Origin: Candidatus Omnitrophica bacterium UBA6233
GTDB taxonomy: Bacteria; Omnitrophota; Gorgyraeia; Gygaellales; Profunditerraquicolaceae
Assembly (NCBI GenBank): GCA_002440965.1
Contig: DJWJ01000011.1
Span: 61,427-125,426 of the forward strand
Length of the DNA: 64,000 nucleotides
Reading direction: 5' to 3'
The notes under the pieces were generated by a model that saw only the letters and a list, made by a program, of their open reading frames with translations, was not told the origin of the DNA and ran no database searches. Position numbers and translations under genes: made by a program. This document shows, in pieces, positions 1 through 59,220 of the stretch; position 1 is the stretch's first letter, and each line of letters begins with the position of its first letter.

Positions 1-49
1 GTACATCGCAGTAATTCCATACTTTCTGCACTATTTCATTTTCGCTCAT
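1..49 (-). CDS. hsdM: Type I R-M methyltransferase subunit HsdM, 5' end only. The gene starts at 49 and runs off the window edge.
   Basis: The reverse complement of 1-49 reads ATG AGC GAA AAT GAA ATA GTG CAG AAA GTA TGG AAT TAC TGC GAT GTA, translating to MSENEIVQKVWNYCDV. This matches the conserved HsdM N-terminus (compare EcoKI ..DLVAKLWKLCDNLRDGG). Only 16 codons are visible. Confidence 0.5.
   Translation of the reverse strand, partial: MSENEIVQKVWNYCDV
3..49. repeat. Direct repeat copy A (matching 1040-1086), covering the hsdM start region
   Basis: About 43 of 47 nt are identical to 1040-1086. The mismatches are ctgc versus tggg and one g/a. Both copies encode MSENEIV(Q/P)KVWNYCDV on the minus strand. 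Confidence 0.8.
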
Positions 50-317
50 AGATTTTACCTATCTTTCTTCATGCCATAGACTTAAATTTGTAGATTTCTC
101 AACAGAATATGTTATAATATTAATATGAGGCATTTAACTCTTGCTAAAACAAACCGCTACTTAAGAAACCGCGTTGCCCGTGCGATTTTACTCGGACGTA
201 CTACCATTAGTTCGGCCGCAGTGGAAGGTATCCATACTTGCAAACACACTCGCGCCAATGGCGTTTCCCCCAGCCGTTCAAAACACAATAGCGCCGCCGT
301 TTTATCCAAATAACATT

Positions 318-1102: not shown

Positions 1103-2002
1103 CTAATCCATACGATGTATCCAATACCATTCTCTAACATCCTGTCCATTATCTTTTAAAGCATAAACCGCAACAAAAGCAAAAGTTCCTTTTTGATCCA
1201 ATGAATCAATATTAAAAAGCACCGGTGATTTAGAAAATGGATTAGGGATAGGATTAAAACCTATTAATCGCGTTGAAACTTTAATATTTTCAAAATCCGC
1301 CTTCAACCCAACAATATCTTTAGACGTTTCCTGACATTTATCAACAGCCCATTTCCAAAATTTACGATAATCCCATGAAGATTCCTTTCCGCCCTGTGGA
1401 ATAGCATGCCAATAACCTTTACTTGCCAAATCAGAATCAAACAATTTCGCACCTGGCGTAACCCATTTATTAACTAATTTGACATAATCTCGCCAAGGAC
1501 AATCTCTAACTTCAGAAAACTCATCTAATACCTCATTTTTCCCCGGTCTTACCCATCTCTTATTGCGATAAACTTCTAATGGCATAATTGCACCGGTTCT
1601 TCCAAAAGTAACTACAAAAATTCCAAGATGTCTGCGTTTATTATTTGTATCAGCTAAATAATGGTTAAACTGTAACCAAATAGATTGACCAAAGGTTTTA
1701 AACTGATATTCTTTACATGGAGTAAGAATTAAAAAACTGTCAGTATTTTTTGCAATCAAATAAGTTTTTACATTAGGCAAAAATGCTAATGTTCCATAAT
1801 CACGTTTATAGAATTCTTGCCGGCTAATTATTTCGTTTTGTGAATCTAATAAAACTTGCTTTTCTACAGTTTTTTCTTTCTTTTCGATAGAAGGATTAAA
1901 GAAATTTACACTAACGCTAATAATTGCAGCTAATATAGTACAACCGCCACAAATTAAAGCGGCTATAATACCAACACTAAATCTTTTCTTATTTTTTATC
2001 AT
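1103..2002 (-). CDS. Hypothetical membrane-anchored protein (N-terminal TM helix), function unknown
   Basis: A 299 aa ORF has the N-terminal hydrophobic segment VGIIAALICGGCTILAAIISV. It overlaps the upstream ORF by 14 nt. I recognise no domain in it. Confidence 0.55.
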   Translation of the reverse strand: MIKNKKRFSVGIIAALICGGCTILAAIISVSVNFFNPSIEKKEKTVEKQVLLDSQNEIISRQEFYKRDYGTLAFLPNVKTYLIAKNTDSFLILTPCKEYQFKTFGQSIWLQFNHYLADTNNKRRHLGIFVVTFGRTGAIMPLEVYRNKRWVRPGKNEVLDEFSEVRDCPWRDYVKLVNKWVTPGAKLFDSDLASKGYWHAIPQGGKESSWDYRKFWKWAVDKCQETSKDIVGLKADFENIKVSTRLIGFNPIPNPFSKSPVLFNIDSLDQKGTFAFVAVYALKDNGQDVREWYWIHRMD

Positions 2003-2612
2003 TTATTTGTTTAATAACTAAATGTTTTTCCATCTCTCCAAGATTATCAGTCCACACTCCATCCCAAGATATTTCAAACACATCATATTTCCGAGAAATA
2101 AAATTATCCGCAACGATTTCTAATTCAACGCGCATAGTTGAATTAGCAGATATATGTCCTTCAAAATTATTAGGCGTTCCGTAAGTACAAATCCTGAATT
2201 TTTTTTCAACAAGAAAACCAAAATCGGCAGTATCTTCTTTGGATATCATTGGAAACATTGGATGACTTTCTGCCGGAGCCCAAGTTAATTGCTGAGGAAC
2301 AAATACATTTGCCCGGTAAAAATTACCATCTGCCTTCTTTTTTAGTATTCCAACAAGTAATATTCGCACATTCTTAGCAGAAGACCAAGGGCGTTTATTT
2401 TTAACAGATAAATGATAATAAATAACCGATGGGCCATTACTAAAATGCGTTAATTCACCTTTAAAGTTTTTAGGTTCTAACACTAAACGAGGACCAGCAA
2501 AGAAATCTCTAAATTTGTCACCCCAGATAGCCATAACAGCTACAGCAACAGTTCCAACAGCAGTTAACCAATCCGTTAGCTTTCCAAAATTTACAGAAAT
2601 ATCACACGCCAT
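1989..2612 (-). CDS. Hypothetical membrane-anchored protein, function unknown
   Basis: A 207 aa ORF has the N-terminal hydrophobic segment LTAVGTVAVAVMAIW. It lies 19 nt downstream of the hsdS stop. I recognise no domain in it. Confidence 0.5.
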   Translation of the reverse strand: MACDISVNFGKLTDWLTAVGTVAVAVMAIWGDKFRDFFAGPRLVLEPKNFKGELTHFSNGPSVIYYHLSVKNKRPWSSAKNVRILLVGILKKKADGNFYRANVFVPQQLTWAPAESHPMFPMISKEDTADFGFLVEKKFRICTYGTPNNFEGHISANSTMRVELEIVADNFISRKYDVFEISWDGVWTDNLGEMEKHLVIKQINDKK

Positions 2613-2631: not shown

Positions 2632-3873
2632 TCACTTTTTACTTAATTCTAACTTCCCCTTCTTTATTCGTTCCAACAAACTCTCGACAGGCTCATCATT
2701 CGGATCCGGCTCAACCAACTTGCCTTCGAAGGCTTTTTTCAAAATACTCTGTTTCAGTCGCTCAATCTTCTCCAGTCCTTGCTCAACGGCATCCTCAAGC
2801 AATTTTGCCCGTTCAAAACGAGATTCAATATTCTCAACAATCTTCACCTGTTCTTCAGGAGAACAAAATTTAAACGGAACCTTTTTAAAGTTTCTAGATG
2901 AAATCCCTGCAACCGTTGTCCCGGTTTTAGCTCTTTCTAATCTCTTTTGAAAAAAAGTTGACATTATCTGATACATTACGAATTTATCAAAATTGTCCGA
3001 TCTTAATAAAACCATTCTTTGCGCAATCGAGAATTTATAATCCGGGATTAGAGAAACTTCTCCCATAGGAGCTTCAGTAGTCATTAAGACATCACCTTTA
3101 TGTGGAATTCCTCTAGTCATATACTTCTTGTAAGTCTCCTCAGTAACATATCGAATATTTTCAAGTCTTATTTGACCATTCCGAATGTTTGAAGTCCGCA
3201 AATGTATAACACCCTTATCCGCATACGGTGGAGTTCTCCCGCGATAATCAATGATTTTAAAAATACTCTCAATAGGTTTTTCTTGTTCAATTTTCTCAAA
3301 CGCCGATTTAAACACTGCCTGGCGATAGCGCTTAATTTCCTGCTGCACGCGCTCCAGCGAATCCTTGGCGCTATCCAGCCGCGAAAACAAGCTCTCAATC
3401 TTGGCGACAATACGTTTTTGTTCGGGATAAGAAACTACCGGCACAGTCAGACACTCTAATTCTTTCGTTGGCACACGAAGCTGGCCAGCGGTTCCTGTCA
3501 TTCGGCCCCGTAAAAACCTTCGAACACTCGCCTGGAGTAAAAAGTAAAAGTAAAACTTATTGTCGACACAATCTGGCAAACGTATGACATGGAATTCCGT
3601 TGAACCCAATCCAATCCCATTCCTCAAACCTCCCATCAAGGCAATTTTACCGTTTTCCATACATGGCGTAATCTTGGCAAAAATAATATCTCCATCTTGA
3701 AATAGGGTAAACCTTTTTAACCCATCCGAAAGTTTAATCGTTTCCGACAAATCAAACCTGCCACTTTCCACTTCAACAGCTTTCATCGACAGGAAACTTA
3801 CTGTAACATCTGTCTTGGCCCGAGGGATCGCCTTCGCCGGATTAATTATTGCTACATCACCAAGTATAATCAA
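2632..3873 (-). CDS. hsdS: Type I R-M specificity subunit HsdS (two target-recognition domains)
   Basis: A 413 aa protein has two TRD-like halves separated and followed by conserved helical spacer regions (..LFSRLDSAKDSLERVQQEIKRYRQAVFKSAFE.. and ..ESRFERAKLLEDAVEQGLEKIERLKQSILKKAFEGKL). This is the typical HsdS layout. Confidence 0.85.
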   Translation of the reverse strand: MIILGDVAIINPAKAIPRAKTDVTVSFLSMKAVEVESGRFDLSETIKLSDGLKRFTLFQDGDIIFAKITPCMENGKIALMGGLRNGIGLGSTEFHVIRLPDCVDNKFYFYFLLQASVRRFLRGRMTGTAGQLRVPTKELECLTVPVVSYPEQKRIVAKIESLFSRLDSAKDSLERVQQEIKRYRQAVFKSAFEKIEQEKPIESIFKIIDYRGRTPPYADKGVIHLRTSNIRNGQIRLENIRYVTEETYKKYMTRGIPHKGDVLMTTEAPMGEVSLIPDYKFSIAQRMVLLRSDNFDKFVMYQIMSTFFQKRLERAKTGTTVAGISSRNFKKVPFKFCSPEEQVKIVENIESRFERAKLLEDAVEQGLEKIERLKQSILKKAFEGKLVEPDPNDEPVESLLERIKKGKLELSKK

Positions 3874-3980
3874 CTGTGCTCCTTAAATTCAATAATTTTC
3901 GCTCACCAATTCACCACAAAAGTTTAACCGTTATAAAGCGAAATGAACCATTGTAACTTATAAAGTTTTTGCTTACTTGA

Positions 3981-4706
3981 TTAAGAAATAAGGGATTCGA
4001 GATTGTTACGCAATTGAGCTTTAACAACATCAATATTAAGAGACCAAATATCAGCTAAAGACGAAATTGCCCCTTGAGTTTCCCATGGCATGATCGGCAA
4101 TTTACCATTAGTGACAAACGGCCCATCCGTCTCCAGAAGAACCTTCTCACGAGGCATTAACTTTATCAATTCCCGCCCTTTCGCACCTAATATCATTGCA
4201 GGACCGACACTAAACCAACAGCCCATTGTAATAGCCCGCTGCAATTCATTCGTTGTCCCAGAAAACCAATGTAATATCGCTGTCCCGGATCGAGGATATT
4301 CTTCAAGCAAATCCAGAACAGCATTGACAGCACACCTCGAATGAATACTCATAATCCTTCCACCTTGCTTTTCACACTCAGCTAAAACATTTAAAAATAT
4401 ATCCTTTTGCAATGGAAAGAATTCCTGATTCTTTGGCGTTCCGTCAAGACCTATCTCTCCAATAAACTGAACCTTCGCAACATCTGCCAGTAACATTTTT
4501 AATTCATTCGCTTTTTTATTCGCTATTTCAGGATGCAGCCCAAGGGCAACCTTAATATTTGTATATCCCGAGAATCTTTGTGACGTCACTTGCCAAGCTC
4601 TAGGGCTAGTCGTTACGACTAGAGTAAAAATATTTCGCTTTGAAACCATTGGAAGCAACTTTAAAGAATCCTGATAAAGATCAAGATGGGAATGAAAATC
4701 AATCAT
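3981..4706 (-). CDS. TatD-family metal-dependent nuclease/hydrolase (QatD-like)
   Basis: A 241 aa ORF has the N-terminal MIDFHSHLD (the HxH motif of TatD) and a TIM-barrel-type conservation pattern. It overlaps the upstream QueC-like gene by 4 nt. Confidence 0.8.
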   Translation of the reverse strand: MIDFHSHLDLYQDSLKLLPMVSKRNIFTLVVTTSPRAWQVTSQRFSGYTNIKVALGLHPEIANKKANELKMLLADVAKVQFIGEIGLDGTPKNQEFFPLQKDIFLNVLAECEKQGGRIMSIHSRCAVNAVLDLLEEYPRSGTAILHWFSGTTNELQRAITMGCWFSVGPAMILGAKGRELIKLMPREKVLLETDGPFVTNGKLPIMPWETQGAISSLADIWSLNIDVVKAQLRNNLESLIS

Positions 4707-5983
4707 ATAACCCCATGCTTTATTAAAAGCTGCCCGAGTTCATCCAACCCCCGAGATAAGACTCCTTCATATTGAGGACGATCAGTCGATGACGCAAAAG
4801 AAAGCGCTCCGCCTGCGAAGCGTTGTATCCCATATTTTTTATAATTTAAATAGGCCATAGCCACCGCCCCAATATCGTTAGGACCAAATTCACGGCCCGC
4901 TTTAGACAAGTCTTGAAAATGATAATTATTCACCGTGGTATCAGTTAATTGTGCTTTTAAGAAGGCTGCACGCCTAACCAAGCAAGGCAAACATCTGCCA
5001 CAATGAACTAGTTTATATCGACCAAACTTCCCACAACTTGTAGACTCCCCTATTAAACCAGTCAATTTTGCCTGATCACAACATCCACTAAGAATCTCGC
5101 CTTTAGTTTTAAATCGAAAAGGGAAAGATAATTTTACTGGGATACTTAGCATGTCCCAAATTTCTTGAAGGCCTCCAGCATAAAGGGGATGCGTGGTTTT
5201 CGTGCTCAAGCTGCCGCTTCTTCCTGAATTAAGTGATGGATTAAGACTCATAAAGCCGTTCTCGGGAACAACAACTTCTATAGGTGCTTCGGATCGAGAA
5301 TTTAAGGCAGATGCCGCAAGAAGCCCGTATGCAAAAAAGATTATTGAGCGTCCCCGAGTTGAACTTTCACACCTATTAAACAAGCTTACTGGATGGCTCC
5401 AATTAAAATACCGACTAGAAGCACCCAAGGTGTTTGCAAACCTCATTTGTGATTTTCTATCACCTTTGACGACTTGAGAAACAAATAAAGGTTTTCTCCC
5501 CGTAGCTGTCAAGTCAATTGCGCCAACAAGACTATCCATACCACCCGAAAGTAACGAAATACAATCTGCATCATAAGAAGCGAGAACTGATGCTTGTGGA
5601 GGTGGCTCAGCTCCAGGAAGAAAGTTTAATTTCCAAAAATCACCAGTTAAAACACGTAAAATCGATTCTAACCGAGATTTTTGTTGTACCCATAGTCCGT
5701 GTTCACAAAGATAAACATCCACTTCAATAACGCGCGTCCATCCATCGGAACTGTTCGACCTCTTACATGATAAATCAGCAGCTGCCACTGCTAACGCAAT
5801 TGACAGAAAATCCCACACGCGTACAGTCGGACTAAAACCTTTCTTTTTAACATCACTACGCAATGTTGGCGCAATGTGCCCAACACCATCACGATGTGAA
5901 TAAGAATACATCGAGAAATAGTTGACGTCATTCACTAGTGTTGCTGGCAAAATAGAATCTGGGGCACAAATAACTTTGTTCAT
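4703..5983 (-). CDS. QueC-like PP-loop ATPase with an extra N-terminal domain (QatC-like)
   Basis: A 426 aa ORF has the PP-loop SLLSGGMDSLVGAIDL about 145 aa from the N-terminus. It has a C-terminal Cys cluster CGKFGRYKLVHCGRCLPC, like the Zn site of QueC. No queD, queE, queF or tgt neighbours are present. Confidence 0.8.
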   Translation of the reverse strand: MNKVICAPDSILPATLVNDVNYFSMYSYSHRDGVGHIAPTLRSDVKKKGFSPTVRVWDFLSIALAVAAADLSCKRSNSSDGWTRVIEVDVYLCEHGLWVQQKSRLESILRVLTGDFWKLNFLPGAEPPPQASVLASYDADCISLLSGGMDSLVGAIDLTATGRKPLFVSQVVKGDRKSQMRFANTLGASSRYFNWSHPVSLFNRCESSTRGRSIIFFAYGLLAASALNSRSEAPIEVVVPENGFMSLNPSLNSGRSGSLSTKTTHPLYAGGLQEIWDMLSIPVKLSFPFRFKTKGEILSGCCDQAKLTGLIGESTSCGKFGRYKLVHCGRCLPCLVRRAAFLKAQLTDTTVNNYHFQDLSKAGREFGPNDIGAVAMAYLNYKKYGIQRFAGGALSFASSTDRPQYEGVLSRGLDELGQLLIKHGVI

Positions 5984-6837
5984 ATAGCACCTTCATATAC
6001 ACTAAAAGTATTCGCTAATGCTTCTTGAATAACAGTTGCCATCTGTCTCGAATCTAGATTGGCATTCCCTTCTCGCAACTGACGAATCTGGGCAGCAATT
6101 TCAGCCCTCATGTATTCACCCATTTCATTCACCCGTTGCACAACGTCTTTCGGATCTAACTTGGCGCTTTCAAAAAGTTGGCCGATATCAAGCTGCAATC
6201 GTGTGGATGCCTCATTTGCCAAAAAAAGCTCAACCACTGTCCAAATATCCGCGTCGTTCATTTTAAGCAAATTCACATTCGGCTGAATTCGTAACAAATC
6301 AGACATTGCACCATTCATAGAGTTTCGACACGATTCTTCATCAAGGCTCCCTCCATCTGATACAACCAAACGGCCGATTTCATCAATCACATCCCTTGCC
6401 GTTGACGTCCTAGCCACTAAAGCATTAATCCACTGGTTAATACGTTGATCAGTACCATCTCGTACTGTTTGAAAAAACGAAACCAGGCCAGCCGCAGTCC
6501 TAGCTGACAAACGCATACGTTTCGCCACGTTTTTCGCACCGCCCATCCCCAGATGGGAATAATGACCAACTGCTTTTCTAAAATGCCCCTCGTCTCCCGT
6601 TCTAGCAAAAATCCCCATTTCTCTTCGGGCATTTGCAAATCGTCGAGCAGGAGCAACACTCACCGGCTGATTCACTTCCAATGGTTGATCTGGTGGCGCA
6701 GTTTCCCTTGGATTATTCCCATTAGGCTCATCTGCTGGCACACTAGGAATAATCAATGGATTACCAATCTGATCAAGCCAAGGAGGATCAAAACCTACCC
6801 CGGCACCAGGCCCTGAACTTGAAGTAGACGTTCCCAT
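5980..6837 (-). CDS. QatB-like protein of unknown function
   Basis: A 285 aa ORF has a Gly/Ser/Pro-rich N-terminus (MGTSTSSSGPGAGVGFDPPW..) followed by a helical region. Its position between the NTPase and the QueC-like gene matches Qat gene order. Confidence 0.5.
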   Translation of the reverse strand: MGTSTSSSGPGAGVGFDPPWLDQIGNPLIIPSVPADEPNGNNPRETAPPDQPLEVNQPVSVAPARRFANARREMGIFARTGDEGHFRKAVGHYSHLGMGGAKNVAKRMRLSARTAAGLVSFFQTVRDGTDQRINQWINALVARTSTARDVIDEIGRLVVSDGGSLDEESCRNSMNGAMSDLLRIQPNVNLLKMNDADIWTVVELFLANEASTRLQLDIGQLFESAKLDPKDVVQRVNEMGEYMRAEIAAQIRQLREGNANLDSRQMATVIQEALANTFSVYEGAI

Positions 6838-8706
6838 TTATTTTCTTCCTTGCATTGAGATAGCATTCTTAACTTGTACAGGAGTATTCGCATCCTGCGA
6901 CCAGCGCTGCAGCATATCTTGAGCCCACGCCTCTCCTTTAATATGAGGAATCAGTGGCGCGGGGCGATTAGCCGCTGGTATCGTTTCAAGATTTGATACA
7001 AATAATGGCCCTAGTCCCGCGAACGCCCTAGTTACATGAAGACATCGAATTAAAGATGACAACGACCATTGCTCCGCCCGCGAAAGTCTCAATAATCGGG
7101 ACAATATACTTCCACACTCTACTTCACCAAGAGTTTGCAATTGAGTAATCATAGGCTGCTGAATAACTTCTCTTATCTCGGCTAACGCTGTTAACAATTC
7201 TTTCCCTCTAACAGAAAGTTCATCAAAACTTGCAAAATTCATCGCCTTATCTCGGCTCAAATATAATAATGGGCGAAGATCAATAGCAGCTAAACGTGGA
7301 GTAAGTTTTAACCATTCGGCAATAAAGGGTACATTCCAGCAAGGATCAGGTGAGCTATACACCTCTCCTTTTGCAAGAGCATCCTCAATTGCCTTCAAAA
7401 AAGAAGGTTTTCCATCGCTGCTTTCGGAAACTTTTCTTACTAAATATTCAAATGCCAAAGCCGGGGCACAACGCTCAAATAGCTGCAATTTCACTAATTC
7501 CTCAAAGGCTACAGTCATACCTTGGCTTCTTGCAACCGTATCTCGAATCATGAGATTATTTAAAAATCTTTTTATCAATCTAGGATTACCTGCGATATTG
7601 TCTGCCGTCGCCATAAGACCGGCAAGTTGATCTGCCAAATCAATTTGAGAACCAATCTTGGTGACTTCTGCACCAAAAGCCTCTTCCATTGTCTTCCGTG
7701 TCAGACAGCCTTTCCAAGAATCTCGAGCTGCTTCTAAAATTTTAACTTGTGCCTCTGCTAATACTTCTTTTAAAATTACCCCACGCCTCTGTTCCAAGTC
7801 AGCTAACAACAGAATCAAATAGGCTTTTACTTCACTGATGCTTAACCGAGGGACTTCCAGCGGAACCTGTATTAACTTGTCAAAATAACTAGTGACTAAA
7901 TTATCTTCCAAGTCATTAATCCCAAAATGCGCTCTAACCGCATTGCGGATCATCTGCTGATCAGCGGCAATAACAAAAGCCGTGCGGGGCAAAAATAGAA
8001 GTAACCGCATGGCCTCCAATGTAGAAATCGCAGTATTAGGAAGACATCGATCAAGGTCATCAACTAAGACAACCAGAGTAATATCTAAATCTTTTAGGAC
8101 CTCCTCAAAAGCTATTCTTAATCCTGCTATTTCTTTTGGAAGCGACTTTAATTCTTTATCTCTTAACAGACCTTTCAGTTCAGGCTCAAGCTCGGCATAA
8201 GCATTCTTAAGCTTCGTTAAATCTTCCTCAGACGGATTCCCCTGAGAGTTCGCAAGTCCACTGACAGCCCCAATGACTGCTCCAAGAGGCCCAGCCATCG
8301 TACCGCCGACAGCCATTCCGGTTAAAACCGGTGCAACAAGTTTTCCGACCCGGAACCATTTAACACGTTTTGCAAATTCGAGAGCCTTATCCAACGGTGT
8401 TTTTCTTTTTTCTGCTTCATCAAGCAAAGCGTCGGAAACAACTTGTAACAATGCCATTCTGGCATCATCGAAACCCTGATAAAGCCAAGCGTTAAAATTT
8501 ACAAAAATGTATTTCTTTCTTGATTCTTCATCTTTCTGTAAACAAACACCTATCATTTTCACTAACGATGATTTGCCAGATCCCCAGTTACCAGACACGC
8601 CTATCGACACCGGCTGACCATTTGATTCGCGAATAAGTTGAGCTGCTGTTTCTGCAACAACAGTAAAATTTAGTAAATCCGTCGTCGTTTCTACATCGTG
8701 CCACAT
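6838..8706 (-). CDS. KAP-family P-loop NTPase (QatA-like)
   Basis: A 622 aa ORF has the Walker A motif GVSGNWGSGKSSL (the KAP signature GxWGxGKS) and the Walker B motif LVVLVDDLDRC. It has a hydrophobic insert LVAPVLTGMAVGGTMAGPLGAVIGAV typical of KAP NTPases. An AGGAGG RBS lies 6 nt upstream. Confidence 0.75.
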   Translation of the reverse strand: MWHDVETTTDLLNFTVVAETAAQLIRESNGQPVSIGVSGNWGSGKSSLVKMIGVCLQKDEESRKKYIFVNFNAWLYQGFDDARMALLQVVSDALLDEAEKRKTPLDKALEFAKRVKWFRVGKLVAPVLTGMAVGGTMAGPLGAVIGAVSGLANSQGNPSEEDLTKLKNAYAELEPELKGLLRDKELKSLPKEIAGLRIAFEEVLKDLDITLVVLVDDLDRCLPNTAISTLEAMRLLLFLPRTAFVIAADQQMIRNAVRAHFGINDLEDNLVTSYFDKLIQVPLEVPRLSISEVKAYLILLLADLEQRRGVILKEVLAEAQVKILEAARDSWKGCLTRKTMEEAFGAEVTKIGSQIDLADQLAGLMATADNIAGNPRLIKRFLNNLMIRDTVARSQGMTVAFEELVKLQLFERCAPALAFEYLVRKVSESSDGKPSFLKAIEDALAKGEVYSSPDPCWNVPFIAEWLKLTPRLAAIDLRPLLYLSRDKAMNFASFDELSVRGKELLTALAEIREVIQQPMITQLQTLGEVECGSILSRLLRLSRAEQWSLSSLIRCLHVTRAFAGLGPLFVSNLETIPAANRPAPLIPHIKGEAWAQDMLQRWSQDANTPVQVKNAISMQGRK

Positions 8707-8965
8707 GAGTGACCTCCTAAAATATATTTTCTAATTGCTTTACTAGAACCAAATATTTTCCTAATTTTAATAATTCCCTTAAAACTTTCCAGCCCCGCGT
8801 TGATGTTCTCAATGATCTTAGTAGTTAAAACATCCTAACCGAGAAGATTATCGATGCCGATTAGACTCTGTCCCTTGAACTCAAAAGTGTCAAAACTAGT
8901 TTTATCCCGATAACAAATATATCTATCTGAACCTATAAAACAATTTAGATATAGTTGTTCACCAC

Positions 8966-11644
8966 TCACCCCACCAACGCCGTATTCAACTCCTCAATCA
9001 CTCCATCCAGATTATCTCCAAATACTTCTTTAGCCTTAATAATTCCTCCGCTGGCGCTGAAGGGCGGCAGGAGGAAATCGTTTTTATCCACACTACCGGA
9101 ACCGGCGATGTGCTCAGAGATCATCGTCAGCCACTGGATTTGTTTTGCGCTGAAAGTCTTACCTAAAAATTGCTGGTTTTTCAGCCATTCCTGAAAGCGA
9201 TGCTCAACATGTTCCTTAAACGGCTCCAGGACCTCCTCTTGATGTATAGCAAAACGCACCAGGGAAACGATATCGGTTAATTGTTTCTGAATCGAGGCCG
9301 GGCGCACTTTGGATTTTTCCAGCTGTTCATAGGCGCGCCAGAGAGTATCGGTGGTAAAGCCGTAAGGCGGCATTTCGATTCTTTCGGCTAATTCGCGGAT
9401 CTCTTCATAGGTAACATGACGCTTTTTATACGGCAGGTTATAGAGGATCTGCAAAGCAGTAATTTTGTCTTTGTTCTCGGCGATAAACTGCTCAAATTTC
9501 TTGACGATGGACGAAGCTTTATCTTTGGACTGCTGATCGAATCCTGACTGGGTAATTGTATCTATAGTAACAGTATCAATGGTTTGTTCGGTCTTTTTAT
9601 GAAGCACGGTTAAAAGCTCGCGAAATTCAGGATTATCAAAAGGCGCGCAGGCTTGGTCCCGATCAGCGACGATATCCGGATCAATGACTGAGACCAGATC
9701 GTTGACGATGTTAGACAAAGACTTGCCGCCGGATACGGCCTTGATCCGCTCAATATCCCGGGGTTCCAGATCCAGATCCAGGCGCGACAAGCGCGAGGCC
9801 AGGCTGGATAAAGTGTCATTGTCGCGGATGCCGATGGCAATATTATTCAGAAGTTTTAGCGTAGGAACGCTTTTTTGCCTATCCAACGGGAAGCTCTGGG
9901 TCTTCTCGCTTTCGCACACGCCTACGGCGTCAACCAGAATAAAATGGGTCTTAGTTTTGGCGTCAGGAGTTACAGCCATAAGGTCATCGGAATCAATTAC
10001 CCGCGTGCCGCGGCCTTTCATCTGCTCAAAGTATATTGCGGATTTAACGTCGCGCATAAAAAGAATACATTCCAGCGGCTTAATGTCGGTACCGGTAGAA
10101 ATCATGTCCACGGTTACGGCAATCCGGGGATTGAAACTATTGCGAAAGGCGGCGATCAGGTCGTCGGTGCTCTCCTGGGTGCGGTAGGTGATCTTCTTAC
10201 AGAAATCATTGCCTTTGCCGAATTCTTCGCGCACAATCTCGGTGATGTCTTCGGCGTGGCTGTCGTCTTTGGCAAAAATCAGGGTTTTGGGCACTTCAGT
10301 GCGGCCGGGGAAAATTTCCGTAGAAAGTTTATCCTTAAATTCCCGAATAACCGTGCGGATCTGGTCTTTAACTACAATACTGCGGTCAAGCTGATCCGGG
10401 GCATATTCGATGTCTTCGTCCAACTTTTCCCAACGGAGTTTGCGAGTAAGCCGGTCGCGTTTATCCACGTAGAAACCGGAAGGGATTTTGCCACCCTCTT
10501 CGGTGGTCTTAGTGCGGATGCGGTACACATCAAAGCCAACGTTGACTTTATCCGCGACTGCCCGGTTATGATCGTATTCCATGACTAAGTTTTTGTTGAA
10601 AAAACCGATGGTCTGATTTGAAGGAGTTGCGGTTAGGCCGATGATAAAAGAATCAAAGTATTCCAGGACCTGACGCCAAAGGTTGTAAATGGAGCGGTGG
10701 CATTCATCAACGATGATGAAATCAAAGGTTTCTACGGGAATTTTGCCGCTGAATTGCACTGCTTGCGGATCAATATCCGGGGCATCGGATTCATAAAGAG
10801 ACTTTTCATCGAGACTGGCGTCCAAATCCTGGTCACCTTTAAGCATGGAAAACAGGCGCTGAATAGTGGTAATGCAGACTTTGGCGCCGGGGTCAAAGAC
10901 GTTAGTGGTCATGTGCTGGACGATATAAAGATCAGTAAAGTTGCGATTATCGTCAAAAGGGATATAATTCTGGAACTCTTTTCTGACTTGCCGGCCCAGG
11001 GAACAGCGGTCAACCAAAAAGAGAATCCGGCGGGCTTTGGCAAATTTAATCAAGCGGTAAATCTCGCTGATAGCGGTGTAGGTTTTGCCACTGCCGGTAG
11101 CCATTTGCAACAGGGCGCGCGGCTTGGCTTGGCGCAAAGATTTTTCCAGGTTAGTGATAGCCTCGATCTGGCATTGGCGGAGATTATAGGGATCCAAAGG
11201 CGGTAATTCGCGCAGGCGCTGACGCAAAGATTTATCCTGTTCAAGCCAATCAGCTAACGTATCCGGGGAATGAAAAGCGAATACGCGGCGCGAACGGGCG
11301 TCCGGATCGCGGTTATTGCGGTAAAAAGTTTCTATGCCGGTGGATTCGTAAGCAACCGGAAGAATATCATCAACTCGGGGAAGATTATCGAGAACCGAAG
11401 AGTTATAGCGGGCGGTTTGCTCGGCAACTCCGGAAAGAGTAATCCCCTCAGCTTTAGCTTCTACTGTACCCACGGCTTTGCGGTCGACAAAAAGCATGTA
11501 ATCAGCCGGGCCGGATTTGGTAGGAAATTCACGCACAGCTACTCCCCTGCCGGCGGAAAGATTAATCTTACGGATATCCTGAATAATCCAGCCTGCTTCT
11601 TTTAATAACCCGTCAATCACCTGCCTCGCTTCGGCTTCGCTCAT
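8966..11644 (-). CDS. hsdR: Type I restriction enzyme R subunit HsdR
   Basis: An 892 aa ORF has the HsdR N-terminal nuclease region MSEAEARQVIDGLLKEAGW..KSGPADYMLFVDRKAVGTVEAKAEG. It has SF2 helicase motif I (MATGSGKTYTA) and motif II (IIVDECHRS). Its GC content is higher than the rest of the window. Confidence 0.9.
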   Translation of the reverse strand: MSEAEARQVIDGLLKEAGWIIQDIRKINLSAGRGVAVREFPTKSGPADYMLFVDRKAVGTVEAKAEGITLSGVAEQTARYNSSVLDNLPRVDDILPVAYESTGIETFYRNNRDPDARSRRVFAFHSPDTLADWLEQDKSLRQRLRELPPLDPYNLRQCQIEAITNLEKSLRQAKPRALLQMATGSGKTYTAISEIYRLIKFAKARRILFLVDRCSLGRQVRKEFQNYIPFDDNRNFTDLYIVQHMTTNVFDPGAKVCITTIQRLFSMLKGDQDLDASLDEKSLYESDAPDIDPQAVQFSGKIPVETFDFIIVDECHRSIYNLWRQVLEYFDSFIIGLTATPSNQTIGFFNKNLVMEYDHNRAVADKVNVGFDVYRIRTKTTEEGGKIPSGFYVDKRDRLTRKLRWEKLDEDIEYAPDQLDRSIVVKDQIRTVIREFKDKLSTEIFPGRTEVPKTLIFAKDDSHAEDITEIVREEFGKGNDFCKKITYRTQESTDDLIAAFRNSFNPRIAVTVDMISTGTDIKPLECILFMRDVKSAIYFEQMKGRGTRVIDSDDLMAVTPDAKTKTHFILVDAVGVCESEKTQSFPLDRQKSVPTLKLLNNIAIGIRDNDTLSSLASRLSRLDLDLEPRDIERIKAVSGGKSLSNIVNDLVSVIDPDIVADRDQACAPFDNPEFRELLTVLHKKTEQTIDTVTIDTITQSGFDQQSKDKASSIVKKFEQFIAENKDKITALQILYNLPYKKRHVTYEEIRELAERIEMPPYGFTTDTLWRAYEQLEKSKVRPASIQKQLTDIVSLVRFAIHQEEVLEPFKEHVEHRFQEWLKNQQFLGKTFSAKQIQWLTMISEHIAGSGSVDKNDFLLPPFSASGGIIKAKEVFGDNLDGVIEELNTALVG

Positions 11645-11805: not shown

Positions 11806-13212
11806 CTATCGGGGTGAGTTTTTTAGCAATAGGATTACTTGGGAGAGGTTGCGCAGGGCGGATTCCGGGCGGTAGGAGGCGACTTTGGAGTTTACTTCCC
11901 TCACCTTTTCATAGCCGTAGGTTTGGATTAGCCCCAGGTAGGTTTCGATTTTTTCTAAGTCTTTGGGCTCATTGAGTTGGGCGGAAAGCTGGCAGGCTTG
12001 TTGAGTCAAATCAGGGGTGTATTTATCGGATAATGCCTGGAGCGCTTGCCGGAATTGTTCCGGGGATTGCAAAGGATTCAGGCGGTAGTCGTTAGCCGGG
12101 CGTTTGTCGAATTCTCCTTCTTTTTCGGGCCTGTGCCTGTAAACTTCCAGAATATTTTCCTTTTCCAGTTCGGTTATGGCGCTGGTAATCGAGCGCTCAG
12201 AGATGTAATATATCCGGCTTAAGTCGGCGTTACTTCTGAACCAATAGGGATTATGGCTGGATCTTTGGGCTTCGCTCAGAGAAACTAAAAACATATATTT
12301 TGCCGCAAAGGAAAGTTTTTGGCAGAAACCATAATCCCAATAAGTATCCGGAATAGTAATGTTTTCCGTAAAGGATGTGTAGATGAGTTCAAGATTTTTG
12401 CTCCAGGGTTTATGCTGGATGAGGCCGTATTTTCGGGTTAGCTTTCTTAGAGGCTGAAAAAGATTAAAATAGTAATTATTGGTGTAACCCAGGGCTTGGC
12501 CGAATTCCGGATAGTTGATTTTTATGACGGATGAATGTTCGCTTTGGGCTTTTTTTGCCAGATACAAATACAGGTCAAAGGCTTTTTCCGAGTGGCTGGT
12601 GAAGAGTTCAAATAAAAGAGGATTGGGCGCGGAAGTTAAAAGGCTAACCGGCAGTTTCAAACCCGGCAGTTGTTGAGGCTGGATAGGCGGATTAAGGCTT
12701 AATTCGATTTTAGAGATATAATCCAGCAGTTTCCCGGCTTGCCTCGGGCTTTCGGTGTAAACGGCGAATTCGTAGTTGTCGCGCAAAGAGGCGCGGGTCC
12801 AGTTAAAACTGCCGAGGATACAAATTTTGGAATCGATGACCAGGCCTTTGCCGTGAAGCACGGCTTTAGAGCTATCGATGGCTGCATTTACGCCGGCTTG
12901 CCGGAGGCGTTTATAGGCGTTGTAATTGACTTTGAAGGTAGTGTCATCCAGGATAACCTTCACGTATACGCCTCTATTTTTAGCGCTGATCAGGCCTTCC
13001 AGGAGGATTGAAGCGGGGTTATCAGTGGGCGCGGGTTCCACGCTAATGAGATAGATGGCTACGTAGATTGATTTTTGCGCTTTTTGGATAGCTTGGAGGG
13101 TAGTCAGGAAATAATCTTTGCCGATGAGAATATCGCTGCGCTCGCCGGCAAAAACAGGCGCAAAGCTAAAGGCAAATAAAGTTATAAGGATTATGAGTAA
13201 GTATCGACGCAT
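11806..13212 (-). CDS. Secreted PLD-family (single HKD motif) protein with a C-terminal region of unknown function
   Basis: A 468 aa ORF has an N-terminal signal-peptide-like segment MRRYLLIILITLFAFSFAPVFAG. It has the HKD motif LHGKGLVIDSKICILGSFNWT. The C-terminal ~250 aa are unassigned. The coding sequence is GC-rich. Confidence 0.7.
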   Translation of the reverse strand: MRRYLLIILITLFAFSFAPVFAGERSDILIGKDYFLTTLQAIQKAQKSIYVAIYLISVEPAPTDNPASILLEGLISAKNRGVYVKVILDDTTFKVNYNAYKRLRQAGVNAAIDSSKAVLHGKGLVIDSKICILGSFNWTRASLRDNYEFAVYTESPRQAGKLLDYISKIELSLNPPIQPQQLPGLKLPVSLLTSAPNPLLFELFTSHSEKAFDLYLYLAKKAQSEHSSVIKINYPEFGQALGYTNNYYFNLFQPLRKLTRKYGLIQHKPWSKNLELIYTSFTENITIPDTYWDYGFCQKLSFAAKYMFLVSLSEAQRSSHNPYWFRSNADLSRIYYISERSITSAITELEKENILEVYRHRPEKEGEFDKRPANDYRLNPLQSPEQFRQALQALSDKYTPDLTQQACQLSAQLNEPKDLEKIETYLGLIQTYGYEKVREVNSKVASYRPESALRNLSQVILLLKNSPR

Positions 13213-14536: not shown

Positions 14537-14600
14537 CGTTCGACTCCCTTTGGTCGCTCACGATGACCCTGAGCAAGCACAGCGCGTCGAAGGGTCATTC
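14537..14600. repeat. R1 hairpin repeat, copy 1, between lpxL and the GT2 gene
   Basis: The sequence cgTTCGACTCcctttggTCGCTCACgATGAcCCTGAG..AAGGGTcAT is homologous to the elements at 32967-33023 and 53964-54066. The inverted arms are ATGACCCT and AGGGTCAT. Confidence 0.7.
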
Positions 14601-15452
14601 TTTCCAAAATCTCCTAAACATATACCATTGCTCCGGGTAACTACGGACATACTCTTCCAAAACCATCTTGTATCGAATAAGAATCTCGCGAATATCCTTT
14701 TCATTATCCCCGGTAGGAACATATTCAATAGGCTTATTCATTACCAAATCAAAACTATCATCTTTATTTCTAAGCATAAACCCCGGAATTATCCGGGCTT
14801 TGGTTTTTAAAGAGATAGCCGCGGGGCCTAAGGGAAAAACGCTGGGTTTAGCGAAAAAATCGATAACTACGCCTTTACCTGTAAAATCGCGGTCTCCTAC
14901 CAAACCCAATAATTCATTCTTTTTTAAAGCTCTCAGGCAACCTTTGGCAGCGCTTCCCAGAGGAAAAACCCTTACGCCTTTACTCTCTCTTTGCCGATTA
15001 AAAAAAGCGTCTACCGCTTTGGATTTATGACGCAAGGCAACGGTTATGAAAGGATAACCCAGCATCGAAATTACTACCCCTCCCAATTCCCAATTTCCCA
15101 GATGCGCGGTTAACAAAATTACTCCGTTGCCCTCGGTAAGAGCGCTATCCACATAATGCATATTTCTTACATGGATATTTTCTTTTATATATTTCATATC
15201 CAGCTTGTCAAAACGAAAAAAATCGACGAGATATTTGGCAAAATTCCGGAAAAGCTGCCTGCGAACGATGGAAATCTCACGATTGCCCTTTTCCGGAAAG
15301 ATAGCTTTAAGATTATCAACCACCCACTTCCGGTCAAGAAAAGCAACCATAGAATACAAATCAGCGGCAAACTCTGCCAGCCGGTAACCGTTCTTTACCG
15401 GCATACTTAATGCGAGCAGTTGGGCAAGTTTATATAAGAAATACTTGGGCAT
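14595..15452 (-). CDS. lpxL: Lipid A biosynthesis (Kdo2-lipid IVA) acyltransferase, LpxL/HtrB family
   Basis: A 285 aa ORF shows the typical N-terminal pattern YFLYKLAQLLALSMP..RRQLFRNFAKYLVDFF of LpxL-type lysophospholipid acyltransferases. Confidence 0.75.
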   Translation of the reverse strand: MPKYFLYKLAQLLALSMPVKNGYRLAEFAADLYSMVAFLDRKWVVDNLKAIFPEKGNREISIVRRQLFRNFAKYLVDFFRFDKLDMKYIKENIHVRNMHYVDSALTEGNGVILLTAHLGNWELGGVVISMLGYPFITVALRHKSKAVDAFFNRQRESKGVRVFPLGSAAKGCLRALKKNELLGLVGDRDFTGKGVVIDFFAKPSVFPLGPAAISLKTKARIIPGFMLRNKDDSFDLVMNKPIEYVPTGDNEKDIREILIRYKMVLEEYVRSYPEQWYMFRRFWKE

Positions 15453-21508: not shown

Positions 21509-22009
21509 TTATACTTTAAGTTCTCCGTATTTTTTATAATAGTTAATGATACCGCCTTCTTTGAGAAGCTCCTGCATAAATTCCGGAAAAGGCTTAACCG
21601 GAAGTTCAATATTCTTAGTTATATTCCTGATGACTCCTTTATCCATATCTATATCTAGACTATCGTTTTCAGCTATCTTCTGCGTATCCGTCTCTATTAA
21701 AGCCAATCCTATATTAAAAGCGTTGCGGTAGAATATGCGGGCAAAGCTCTTGGCCAAAACAGCCACGATACCGGCCTCCTTAATTACCAAAGGAGCCTGT
21801 TCCCGCGAAGACCCCATCCCAAAGTTACTGCCGGCAATAATCATAGATTTACCCGGGGTTATCTTGGCGGGAAAATCCGGATCGATATCCTCCATAATAT
21901 GTTTGGCCAACTCTTTCATATCGGTAATGGCAAATTTATACCTTCCCGATATGATAAAATCAGTATTAATGTTATCCCCTAATTTAATCGCTTTACCTTC
22001 AAATTTCAT
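21509..22009 (-). CDS. leuD: 3-isopropylmalate dehydratase / homoaconitase small subunit (LeuD-like)
   Basis: A 166 aa ORF has the archaeal-type LeuD pattern (GDNINTDFIISGRY). Confidence 0.8.
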   Translation of the reverse strand: MKFEGKAIKLGDNINTDFIISGRYKFAITDMKELAKHIMEDIDPDFPAKITPGKSMIIAGSNFGMGSSREQAPLVIKEAGIVAVLAKSFARIFYRNAFNIGLALIETDTQKIAENDSLDIDMDKGVIRNITKNIELPVKPFPEFMQELLKEGGIINYYKKYGELKV

Positions 22010-23052
22010 AGCTGCCTGAATTCGTCCGAATTTTTAACCTTCGAAAGGGCGGTATCCAGAGTAATGAGGCCCTTTTGAAGTAATTCTTTTAAACACTTAT
22101 CCATAGTCTTCATTCCATATTGAGAACCGGTTTGCATAAGCGTGGGTATCTGCTCAATTTCCTGCTCGCGGATAAGATTCCTTATCCCGGAGGTCCCGAC
22201 CATAATTTCTGTTGCCAATACTCTTCCCTTTCCTGAAGCGTGAGGAAGCAGTAATTGCGAAACTACGCCCTGCAAGCAATCGGCCAATTGCAGTTTAACC
22301 TGCTGTTGCTGGTGAGAAGGAAAAACATCAATGATTCTTTCGATAGTCTGCGGCGCATCCGGAGTATGCAAAGTCGCTAAAACCAGATGTCCTGTCTCTG
22401 CCGCAGTCAAGGCCGTTGAAATGGTTTCCAGATCGCGCATTTCCCCCACGACTATTACATTGGGATCCTGGCGCAACGCGTGTTTGAGCGCTTCAGCGAA
22501 AGAACGCGTATCTTGATAAACTTCCCTCTGCTTTATGACGCTCTTTTCGTTTTTAAAAACAAACTCGATTGGGTCTTCTATGCAAACAATAAGGCATTCT
22601 CTTTCTTTATTAATCAGGTCAATCATTGTAGCCAAAGTCGTGGTTTTACCCATACCAGTAGGGCCGGTAACCAAAACCAAACCATTTGACCTACGGGCCA
22701 AATCAGGAATTATACCGGGAAGCCCGAGTTTTTCAATTGTGGGGATTTCCAAGGGAACGCACCTGAACGCCGCTTCCGGCGAACCTTTTTGCAGATGCGC
22801 ATTGACGCGAAACCGATCCAAACCCGGCAGGGCTAGCGAAAAATCAAGCTCAAGATCCCTCTCAAATGACTCTTTTTGAGAATTGCTTAAAATTCCATAA
22901 ATCATTCTCTTTAAGTCTTCTCTATTTAATACAGGCAGTTTTGTGCGCTGAAGAAAACCGTCAACGCGCAGAATCGGAGGTTCGTTTTCGGTAATATGCA
23001 AATCAGAAGCTTTCTTCTCGATGCACATCATAAGCAATTCCTTTATTTCCAT
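22006..23052 (-). CDS. pilT: Type IV pilus retraction ATPase PilT
   Basis: A 348 aa ORF has the Walker A motif VTGPTGMGKTTT and PilT-family Asp/His boxes. Confidence 0.9.
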   Translation of the reverse strand: MEIKELLMMCIEKKASDLHITENEPPILRVDGFLQRTKLPVLNREDLKRMIYGILSNSQKESFERDLELDFSLALPGLDRFRVNAHLQKGSPEAAFRCVPLEIPTIEKLGLPGIIPDLARRSNGLVLVTGPTGMGKTTTLATMIDLINKERECLIVCIEDPIEFVFKNEKSVIKQREVYQDTRSFAEALKHALRQDPNVIVVGEMRDLETISTALTAAETGHLVLATLHTPDAPQTIERIIDVFPSHQQQQVKLQLADCLQGVVSQLLLPHASGKGRVLATEIMVGTSGIRNLIREQEIEQIPTLMQTGSQYGMKTMDKCLKELLQKGLITLDTALSKVKNSDEFRQL

Positions 23053-23127
23053 CTATAACCTCCTTTATATAGCAAACTAACTGACACTAAATGAACTTAA
23101 AAGTAAAAAAACAAAAGGCAGAACTGT

Positions 23128-23262
23128 TAATGTCAAAAGTCAAAGTTCAAAGCTCAAAATAAATTTAAATTACAAATATCAAATGACAAGAAATTAGTTT
23201 TGGATTTTGAAATTTTAGTTTTAGATTTATTTTGTGCTTTGGATTTTGTCATTTGTCATTAA
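23128..23262. repeat. P-family AT-rich imperfect palindrome, copy 1
   Basis: The left arm taatgtcaaaagtcaaagttcaaagctcaaaataaat... is an approximate reverse complement of the right arm ...tttattttgtgctttggattttgtcatttgtcatta. Confidence 0.75.
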
Positions 23263-23287
23263 ATCTTTGAATTATTAGCCTCTCTGG

Positions 23288-24544
23288 CTAACAAAGAAAA
23301 TCTCCCGGATCAGCGATATGGCCTTTAATTGCCGAAGCGGCTACCGTAGCCGGAGAAGCCAAATATATAAAAGCGCCCGGATTTCCCATTCTACCCTTAA
23401 AATTCCGGTTTGCGGTAGATATAACTATTTCTCCGTCGGCAGGTATACCGTTATGCGTGCCTACGCAAGGACCGCAACCGGGAACCAAAACAATTCCTCC
23501 GGCTTTGACAAAGACATCCAGCAGTTTTAATTTCATTGCCTCTAATAAGACTCTGCGCGAACTGGGAGCTACGATAAATTTGACACCCGGGGCAACTTTT
23601 CTACCTTTGAGTATCTTAGCAGCTATTTTTAAATCTTGCAATCTGCCGTTTGTGCAAGTTCCCAGATATGCTTCATCGATCTTCACTTCGCTTAAATCCC
23701 GCGCAGGCCTGGCATTATCCACAACATGAGGCAAAGCTACCTGCGGCTCTAGACTTGATACATCAAATTCAAGAACTTGCTCATAGGAAGCATCCGTATC
23801 CGCGCAAATCTGTTTGATTTCCGGCTTAGGCACACCGTGAGACCTCAACCAATCAATAGTAACCCTATCCACCGGCATAAACCCGGCTTTAGCGCCCATT
23901 TCTACCGCCATATTACTCATCGTAAAACGGCCGTCCATATCCATTTTATCTATTACCGGCCCGCAAAATTCTACAGCCTTATATGTCGCTCCATCAGCCC
24001 CTATCTCTTTAATGACGCGCAAAATTACATCTTTTGCGAATACGGCCTTGGGAAGTTTCCCCTTAATTACTACCTTAATTGTTTCCGGAACCTTAAACCA
24101 GTTCTTTCCGGTAGCCAAGGCGATAGCCAAATCCGTGGAACCTACCCCCGTGGAAAAAGCGGCTAACGCGCCATAAGTGCAGGTATGGGAATCCGCCCCC
24201 AAAACCAAATCTCCCGGTAAAATTTTGCCGGATTCAGGAATTACCTGGTGACAAACTCCGCAACCTATATCAAAAATATTTTGCCGGAAATCTTTGGCAA
24301 AATCGCGCATCTTTTTATGCACCCGGGACACTCCTTCACTCGGGGATGGCGCGCTATGATCAATAACCATGCAAAAGCCTGTTTTAAGCTCTTTTACGCC
24401 CAGTTCCTTTATCCTGTCAATAATGATAGAGCTAGTGCCATCCTGTCCAAAAGTAAAATCGACTTTGCAAACCGCAAAATCTCCGGCTCTTAGATCCCTG
24501 CCGGAGTGCGCGCTCAATATTTTTTCCGCTATTGTCTTTCCCAT
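23288..24544 (-). CDS. leuC: 3-isopropylmalate dehydratase / homoaconitase large subunit (archaeal-type LeuC/HacA)
   Basis: A 418 aa ORF has the aconitase-family Fe-S ligand Cys residues (GTCTNGR, VPGCGPCVG). Confidence 0.85.
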   Translation of the reverse strand: MGKTIAEKILSAHSGRDLRAGDFAVCKVDFTFGQDGTSSIIIDRIKELGVKELKTGFCMVIDHSAPSPSEGVSRVHKKMRDFAKDFRQNIFDIGCGVCHQVIPESGKILPGDLVLGADSHTCTYGALAAFSTGVGSTDLAIALATGKNWFKVPETIKVVIKGKLPKAVFAKDVILRVIKEIGADGATYKAVEFCGPVIDKMDMDGRFTMSNMAVEMGAKAGFMPVDRVTIDWLRSHGVPKPEIKQICADTDASYEQVLEFDVSSLEPQVALPHVVDNARPARDLSEVKIDEAYLGTCTNGRLQDLKIAAKILKGRKVAPGVKFIVAPSSRRVLLEAMKLKLLDVFVKAGGIVLVPGCGPCVGTHNGIPADGEIVISTANRNFKGRMGNPGAFIYLASPATVAASAIKGHIADPGDFLC

Positions 24545-59212: not shown

Positions 59213-59220
59213 TTATCATT
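59080..59220. repeat. P-family palindrome, copy 4, overlapping the Mfd C-terminal codons and the SurA signal-peptide codons
   Basis: aaaactaaaattacaaataccaaagcccaaaattaaaaataagcacaaataacaaa... is mirrored by ...tttattttgagctttgaattttatcatttatcatt. Confidence 0.7.

Follow-up and report, generated by a model that had tools for sequence, protein, structure and literature searches.

What are the four genes that separate hsdR from hsdS in a type I restriction-modification (R-M) locus, do they work for that locus, and how did they come to lie there? The locus belongs to a 64,000-nucleotide (nt) stretch of contig DJWJ01000011.1, which we call the window at its full length and which lies in JGI contig 3300001594 Draft_10000393 (locus L001; window position = 10978 - L001 position). 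We put at roughly 93% the probability that the four genes are a complete, intact and canonical qatABCD anti-phage operon that occupies, as exchangeable cargo, the slot between hsdR and hsdS of a type I R-M defence island, in a diderm host that has not been cultured and is most likely Candidatus Omnitrophota. The qatABCD system has already been described, and standard tools as well as GenBank already recognise the present copy.

All four open reading frames (ORFs) lie on the minus strand, adjacent and co-directional, in the Qat order: a KAP NTPase (qatA, 6838-8706, 622 amino acids (aa)), QatB (5980-6837, 285 aa), a QueC-like protein (qatC, 4703-5983, 426 aa) and a TatD-like protein (qatD, 3981-4706, 241 aa). 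The qatA/qatB junction abuts (TAA followed directly by ATG), while the qatB/qatC and qatC/qatD junctions are 4-nt ATGA overlaps, and the tight packing described in an earlier reading of the bare sequence (the first-pass annotation) was thus found at all junctions. For each protein the PADLOC top match was its own Qat profile only, with E-values of 2.1e-124 for QatA, 7.7e-31 for QatB, 1e-86 for QatC and 3.2e-81 for QatD, and values spanning 1e-31 to 1e-124 are far beyond chance. NCBIfam equivalog cut-offs were passed by QatB (135 vs 100 bits), QatC (296 vs 280) and QatD (293 vs 230), and GenBank entries identical to the present proteins bear the names QatB, QatC and QatD. The first-pass annotation had proposed the QatABCD architecture and had named what would speak against it, and none of this was found: the 622-aa protein matches the KAP and QatA profiles, the 426-aa protein has PP-loop homologues of solved structure, and no queDEF or tgt gene turned up next to the cassette in the scan described below. 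The canonical full-length form, to which this operon belongs, accounts for 98% of surveyed Qat clusters (PMC13434339).

The identity of the first gene product as a KAP-type P-loop NTPase, read originally from its motifs, is backed by Pfam KAP_NTPase (2.8e-57) and by the NCBIfam QatA profile (1.3e-120) in addition to that of PADLOC, and a search of solved structures returned no homologue for QatA. Walker A is G39NWGSGKS46 (nt 8569-8592), and Walker B is VVLVDDLDR at residues 212-220 (nt 8047-8073). Of the hydrophobic insert that had been described together with the Walker A motif, a Gly/Ala-rich hydrophobic segment is present at about residues 120-160 (nt 8227-8349); its Kyte-Doolittle peak of 1.52 is under the usual transmembrane threshold of 1.6.

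QatB, which also matches the solved QatB structures 9zee_A (1.9e-16) and 9vll_A, begins with MGTSTSSSGPGAGVG (N-terminal peptide GTSTSSSGPGAGVGF) and carries the disordered N-terminus that had been noticed before, a tail of about 70 residues rich in Pro, Gly and Ser (nt 6628-6837) that precedes a helical QatB domain. Two elements of the tail stand out, M1GTS4 at nt 6826-6837 and P18PW20 at nt 6778-6786. In a sample of 120 QatB homologues, 46-100% identical to the present protein, PPW was found in all 120 and an MGTS start in 119; in the one remaining sequence the start is mis-called, and MGTS follows ten residues later. These elements correspond to G2 and to P16/W18 of Pseudomonas aeruginosa QatB, in which G2D, or deletion of residues 16-22 including P16 and W18, abolishes defence (PMC13279940). 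The suggestion that the Gly-rich tail could be the substrate of a QueC-like conjugation reaction matches a published model (PMC13279940, PMC13376578, PMC13639016) that has partial experimental support in homologues.

QatC is a QueC-family PP-loop protein that is extended at both termini. It is a homologue of the QatC proteins 9vlk and 9zee, PP-loop proteins of known crystal structure (E 7e-44), with the motif columns aligned, which agrees with the fold assigned to it at first sight. The SGGMDS motif, the Cys cluster and the extra N-terminal domain of about 140 aa ahead of the motif were all confirmed. S146GGMDS151 lies at nt 5531-5548, with S146 and S151 aligning with S156 and S161 of the P. 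aeruginosa protein, and Cys317, Cys328, Cys331 and Cys334 (nt 4982-5035) align with the published zinc ligands. T261-K-T263 (nt 5195-5203) aligns with the invariant T278/T280 that replace the Tyr/Asp pair by which QueC and Cap9 bind 7-carboxy-7-deazaguanine (CDG).

QatD is assigned to the TatD family (HxH, type II) of metal-dependent nucleases by Pfam TatD_DNase (1.5e-41), and it matches PDB 3gg7 (3e-65) and Acinetobacter baumannii QatD 9xsn (1.5e-55) with all ligand columns identical. The HSH motif that first suggested a TatD nuclease is H5SH7, and Pfam, NCBIfam and the 9xsn alignment agree with that reading. All nine of the active-site residues are conserved (H5, H7, H58, E84, D88, H122, H146, E192 and D194), their counterparts in 9xsn being H8, H10, H60, E86, D90, H124, H148, E194 and D196, and the roles of these residues have been defined in the A. 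baumannii enzyme (PMC13434339).

Taken feature by feature, the locus agrees with published QatABCD in its four genes, their order and their translational coupling, in the Walker A and B motifs of the KAP protein QatA, in the MGTS/PxW tail of QatB, in the SGGxDS, T-x-T and Cys4-Zn motifs and both extensions of QatC, and in the HxH two-metal site of QatD. It differs in the C-terminal ~75 residues of QatA, which QatA profiles leave unaligned, in a QatC that has about 40 residues fewer (426 vs 465-466 aa) and less sequence between zinc cysteines 1 and 2, in the 3′ scar of an hsdM gene upstream of the operon, and in its host, as Omnitrophota are absent from the phyla given in the published QatD survey (PMC13434339). 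These differences leave the architecture unchanged. Compared with a 90% identical copy in an Omnitrophota metagenome-assembled genome (MAG), locus L005, the ratio of nonsynonymous to synonymous substitution rates (dN/dS) is 0.10-0.18 for all four genes, which are therefore under purifying selection, and the present copy is probably functional.

The region in front of qatA bears on how the operon arrived. An AGGAGG ribosome-binding site (8713-8718, minus strand), conserved in L005, lies 6 nt before the qatA ATG (8704-8706), and the hsdR stop is separated from the qatA start by 259 bp (8707-8965). Both had been annotated as a ribosome-binding site of the cassette's own and an upstream region, and both are there; what did not stand is the picture of the spacer as an upstream region in its own right, since most of it is a decayed fragment of hsdM. 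By tblastn, 8766-8918 (minus strand) matches the C-terminus of L005 HsdM with 63% identity over 51 aa (E 7e-17) and an internal in-frame stop, and it has no match to the resident HsdM, pointing to a pseudogene fragment of the 3′ end of a foreign hsdM. Its nucleotide identity to L005 is 73%, as compared with 83-96% across the qat genes. We read the spacer as largely a recombination scar rather than a dedicated regulatory region. A promoter and terminator scan of 3700-9100 gave 15 promoter-like matches against 11.3 +/- 3.3 in shuffled sequence, which is no excess. Two weak sigma-70-like matches (9/12) lie upstream of qatA, and nothing resembling a terminator separates it from hsdR.

The flanking genes show that hsdR, hsdM and hsdS belong to one locus and are set apart by inserted cassettes. 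On the coding strand the order is a PLD-family protein, hsdR, the hsdM 3′ scar with qatABCD, hsdS, orf207, orf299, a duplicate of the hsdM 5′ end, Fic (PDC-S04), hsdM, AbiD and RhuM. Immediately upstream of the spacer, hsdR (8966-11644, minus strand, 892 aa) encodes the restriction subunit (Pfam EcoEI_R_C 2.7e-43, ResIII 5.4e-38 and HSDR_N; PADLOC REase_I 5.9e-52), and immediately downstream of the operon, hsdS (2632-3873, minus strand, 413 aa) encodes the specificity subunit from a TTG start after AAGGAG (two Pfam Methylase_S domains; PADLOC Specificity_I 1.9e-94). The methylase gene hsdM (minus strand; MTase_I 5.5e-198) starts at window position 49 and runs past the left edge (L001 10929-12383). 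The placement of the cassette between hsdR and hsdS had therefore been seen correctly, but what surrounds it is a defence island in which the type I R-M locus is fragmented, hsdM lying downstream of hsdS beyond two unknown ORFs and Fic.

The slot itself is variable. In two sister haplotypes (L002 and L003), blastn shows flanks 96-97% identical to the window around a segment corresponding to 2831-8967 (minus strand; here qatABCD and most of hsdS), within which only 128 bp of the central region of hsdS are related. From the hsdR stop to the last ~200 bp of hsdS, these haplotypes carry instead a 195-aa ORF without a match in Pfam, PADLOC or NCBIfam, a PDC-S06 ATPase and different hsdS target-recognition domains. 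The ATPase (770 aa, AAA_13, PADLOC 2.6e-234; L002 4171-7088 and the same slot in L003) has a PrrC-like C-terminus. Cassettes are thus genuinely exchanged at the hsdR-hsdS slot, and the earlier description of the locus as a defence hotspot is borne out by the PDC-S06 cassette found there. The arrangement resembles that of other defence genes within type I R-M loci (PrrC/RloC-type and the PDC-S genes of PADLOC), in that a cassette lies between hsd genes, that the alternative allele has a PrrC-like C-terminus, and that Fic (PDC-S04) and AbiD are present in the island. PrrC is regulated by EcoprrI, and Qat differs from it in having no known functional dependence on an R-M enzyme.

A scan of a genome collection with QatC, made with single-protein patterns that reach close relatives only, returned one close locus, L005, in which the order is hsdR, hsdS, DUF1016, hsdM, qatABCD. 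The DNA common to both loci (window 3976-8909, minus strand, corresponding to L001 2069-7002 and L005 5075-10008; 90% identity by blastn) comprises the hsdM 3′ fragment, the spacer and qatABCD; it starts within the last ~160 bp of L005 hsdM and stops 5 bp past the qatD stop codon. The present cassette most likely derives from a locus with qatA directly behind hsdM and was brought in by recombination, which left the hsdM 3′ scar. Among more distant Qat cassettes, the four-gene order and the protein sizes recur in unrelated neighbourhoods, and no hsdM remnant was found beside L006, L007, L009 or L010, so the scar is specific to the lineage of the window and L005.

These observations have to be weighed against other explanations of the same genes. 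The QueC-like and TatD genes could serve 7-deazaguanine or queuosine metabolism, Dpd-type DNA modification, or a type IV cyclic-oligonucleotide-based antiphage signalling system (CBASS) as an accessory pair, and some resemblance exists: QatC shares with canonical QueC a Rossmann-like PP-loop core, SGGxDS and a CxxCxxC zinc site, Pfam QueC gives a marginal match (22.9 bits) confined to the C-terminal 60 residues around the zinc region, and the PLD protein beside hsdR faintly matches DpdK (3.4e-5; 1.8e-4 in a second search). However, the QatC sequence has none of the motifs YxQxHxxE, VPxRN and YPDC of canonical QueC, as described for the QatC cluster (PMC13329287), T-x-T stands in place of the Tyr/Asp pair, and E. 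coli QatC fails to complement a queC deletion (PMC13329287). There are no que operon partners either: among scanned ORFs of at least 150 aa in the 64-kb window and 10 kb to its left, where ribosomal-protein and rpoBC stretches were sampled rather than followed gene by gene, we found no queC, queD, queE, queF or tgt, no dpdA, dpdB or dpdC, and no CD-NTase or Cap10. The protein is also 426 aa long, as compared with ~185 aa for Cap9, and PADLOC returns QatC only. The queuosine, Dpd and CBASS readings were rejected on motifs and neighbours, being next to negligible in probability, and the first-pass conclusions that queuosine partners are lacking nearby and that the QueC homologue is not engaged in preQ0 synthesis both hold within that scan. 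That the cassette is an inactive relic, recently acquired or decaying, is very improbable too; the recombination scar alongside, a QatA that falls under the NCBIfam equivalog cut-off and a host supply of CDG that is not assured would fit it, but none of the four ORFs is truncated, their catalytic and binding motifs are all intact, the ATGA coupling is kept, and the low dN/dS of the qat genes stands against an adjacent hsdM remnant that has decayed and acquired a stop codon.

More weight, though still small, attaches to the possibility that Qat is not autonomous and serves the type I R-M system around it as an accessory, for instance by being transcribed together with hsdR and by attacking restriction products or phage DNA that has escaped by methylation, which we consider unlikely. 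The operon adjoins type I R-M genes in two arrangements, as it follows hsdR in the window and hsdM in L005, it is accompanied by an hsdM fragment, and the stretch between hsdR and qatA has neither a terminator-like site nor a promoter better than chance. Nevertheless, relatives with 48-76% identical QatB lie in neighbourhoods without type I R-M, next to DUF1016, VWA/PP2C or BREX-BrxL/GmrSD/Mrr genes, with no hsdM remnant beside them, and published Qat operons protect E. coli when cloned alone (PMC13279940). The unrelated cassette in the same slot of the sister haplotypes fits a hotspot better than a partnership. As the distant Qat cassettes lie in neighbourhoods without hsd genes or scars, Qat is therefore better seen as a mobile module than as a dedicated R-M accessory, and a canonical qatABCD operon carried as cargo remains our preferred explanation.

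The way in which such an operon would act can be outlined from homologues, in which the steps have been established, and carried over to the present locus by conservation. Met1 of QatB would be removed to expose Gly2, the helical body would bind QatC in a 1:1 ratio, and the long disordered tail would thread the Gly2 amine into the PP-loop active site. A 1:1 complex of QatB and QatC is the minimal defence unit (PMC13279940) and has been demonstrated with the proteins of both E. coli and P. aeruginosa (PMC13279940, PMC13639016, PMC13376578). In crystals the N-terminus of QatB occupies the QatC active site, and Edman sequencing gives Gly2 (PMC13376578), whose amine sits where Cap9 holds its CD-NTase substrate (PMC13639016, PMC13376578). 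Using ATP, QatC would then adenylate a carboxylate substrate, presumably CDG or a related molecule, and transfer it to the QatB N-terminus, a step likely to be N-terminal deazaguanylation (NDG) of the kind that Cap9 performs on CD-NTases in type IV CBASS. Consistent with this, the ATP-site and T-x-T residues of QatC are essential (PMC13279940), and an NDG-modified GTSKAY peptide of E. coli QatB has been detected at a low level by liquid chromatography-tandem mass spectrometry (PMC13639016).

The likeness to type IV CBASS Cap9/CD-NTase (PDB 9NTO) lies in a QueC-family PP-loop enzyme that is proposed to act on the Gly2 amine of its partner (PMC13279940, PMC13376578) and in a partner with an M-G-x-S N-terminus and a flexible tail. 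In contrast, a CD-NTase, the TGT-like Cap10 and a cyclic-nucleotide effector are all missing from Qat, QatC has T-x-T instead of Y-x-D together with extra N- and C-terminal domains, and the QatB-QatC complex is 1:1 as opposed to 2:2 for Cap9. The QatB tail would also tether QatD, in keeping with the binding of QatD by the tail of a homologue (PMC13639016). QatD itself would be a two-metal TatD 3′-5′ exonuclease and apurinic/apyrimidinic (AP) endonuclease that is inhibited at physiological nucleoside triphosphate (NTP) levels, in line with the Mg-dependent exonuclease, Ca-dependent AP endonuclease and NTP inhibition reported for the characterised enzyme (PMC13434339). QatA would be an oligomeric, DNA-binding KAP NTPase that widens the range of phages blocked, its homologue binding DNA and forming heptamers or octamers (PMC13279940). 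We infer that modified QatB may license the attack of QatD, and of QatA, on phage DNA.

Several points weigh against this account of a canonical and active operon. The score of QatA, 403.9 bits, is below the NCBIfam NF041923 cut-off of 600, and accordingly its GenBank name is 'P-loop NTPase fold protein'; the alignment covers residues 1-547 only, and the last ~75 residues lie outside every QatA profile alignment, whether of PADLOC or NCBIfam. The shortfall reflects this divergent C-terminal stretch of ~75 aa and not an absent domain. Activity, complex formation and modification are extrapolated from divergent homologues (QatC E 7e-44; QatB E 1.9e-16). In the literature, in-vitro reconstitution of QatC catalysis failed, and NDG was seen on QatB at low stoichiometry only (PMC13639016). 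The presence of T-x-T in place of the CDG-binding pair suggests that the first substrate of QatC may not be CDG, and the window holds no queD or queE, which bears on the supply of CDG by the host. Finally, no convincing promoter or terminator that would delimit the transcription unit was found in 3700-9100.

The locus matters little beyond annotation. It extends the Qat host range to an uncultured Omnitrophota-like lineage, and what it adds is context: the alternative cargo, the hsdM scars, an hsdM past the left edge of the window and the Omnitrophota host. It is of modest value as a naturally occurring swap of cassettes at a type I R-M hotspot, where Qat and PDC-S06 are the alternative alleles and the joins bear hsdM scars, and its divergent QatBC pair, with a shorter QatC, could help identify the substrate that is put on the QatB N-terminus. 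We also raise, as a tentative idea that falls somewhat short of even odds, that hsd genes serve as recombination handles moving defence cargo between genomes, because a foreign hsdM 3′ end accompanies Qat, a 31-codon duplicate of hsdM precedes Fic, and the segment from the hsdR stop to the hsdS 3′ end has been swapped. If this were true in general, the conserved ends of hsdM, hsdR and hsdS would act as portable homology arms, which would explain type I R-M defence hotspots without an integrase.

The hsdM duplicate is one half of a direct repeat of ~105 bp, ~90% identical, that flanks Fic at 993-1098 and 1-62 (both minus strand); the copy upstream of Fic duplicates the ribosome-binding-site region and first 31 codons of the resident hsdM (MSENEIVPKVWNYCDVLWDDGVSYGDYVEHL), and the pair gives the island what appears to be another scar of recombination. 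Within the operon, divergence from L005 is mosaic (window 3981-5983 vs L005 8001-10003), with qatC at 96% nucleotide identity (dS 0.13) and the adjacent qatD at 83% (dS 0.61), which suggests recombination inside the operon.

Other genes of the island were also noted. Past hsdM, to the left of the window (L001 12603-15653), lie genes for AbiD (7.8e-74), a RhuM-family protein and a SWIM-zinc-finger protein, so that at least four further modules of a defence or toxin-like kind lie among the type I R-M genes. Between hsdS and Fic, the overlapping orf207 and orf299 (207 and 299 aa; 1103-2612, minus strand) are conserved in both haplotypes and have no match in Pfam, PADLOC or NCBIfam; the 299-aa protein has an N-terminal hydrophobic segment, and the two are a candidate uncharacterised defence pair. 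Directly upstream of hsdR, a 468-aa protein (11806-13212, minus strand) combines an N-terminal PLD-family nuclease domain (NucT-/DrmC-like, weak) with a long uncharacterised C-terminal region, and its gene could be one more of the island's defence genes.

As regards the host, 'Patescibacteria group bacterium' is the GenBank label of the MAG that contains these proteins. However, a lipid A acyltransferase (14595-15452) and SurA (58217-59212), which are diderm features, are encoded in the window, and its RpoC (45535-49548) is identical to one in Candidatus Omnitrophota MAGs; the label probably arose from wrong binning or classification. Elsewhere in the window, a gene for a PilT/T2SSE-type secretion ATPase (22006-23052) splits the genes for the large (23288-24544) and small (21509-22009) subunits of an aconitase-family enzyme (21509-24544, minus strand), which are normally an adjacent pair. 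An Mfd-like protein (59187-61100, minus strand) with UvrB_inter, CarD_TRCF_RID, DEAD and Helicase_C domains is, at 637 aa, short for a transcription-repair coupling factor, and may have a mis-called start or a truncated architecture.

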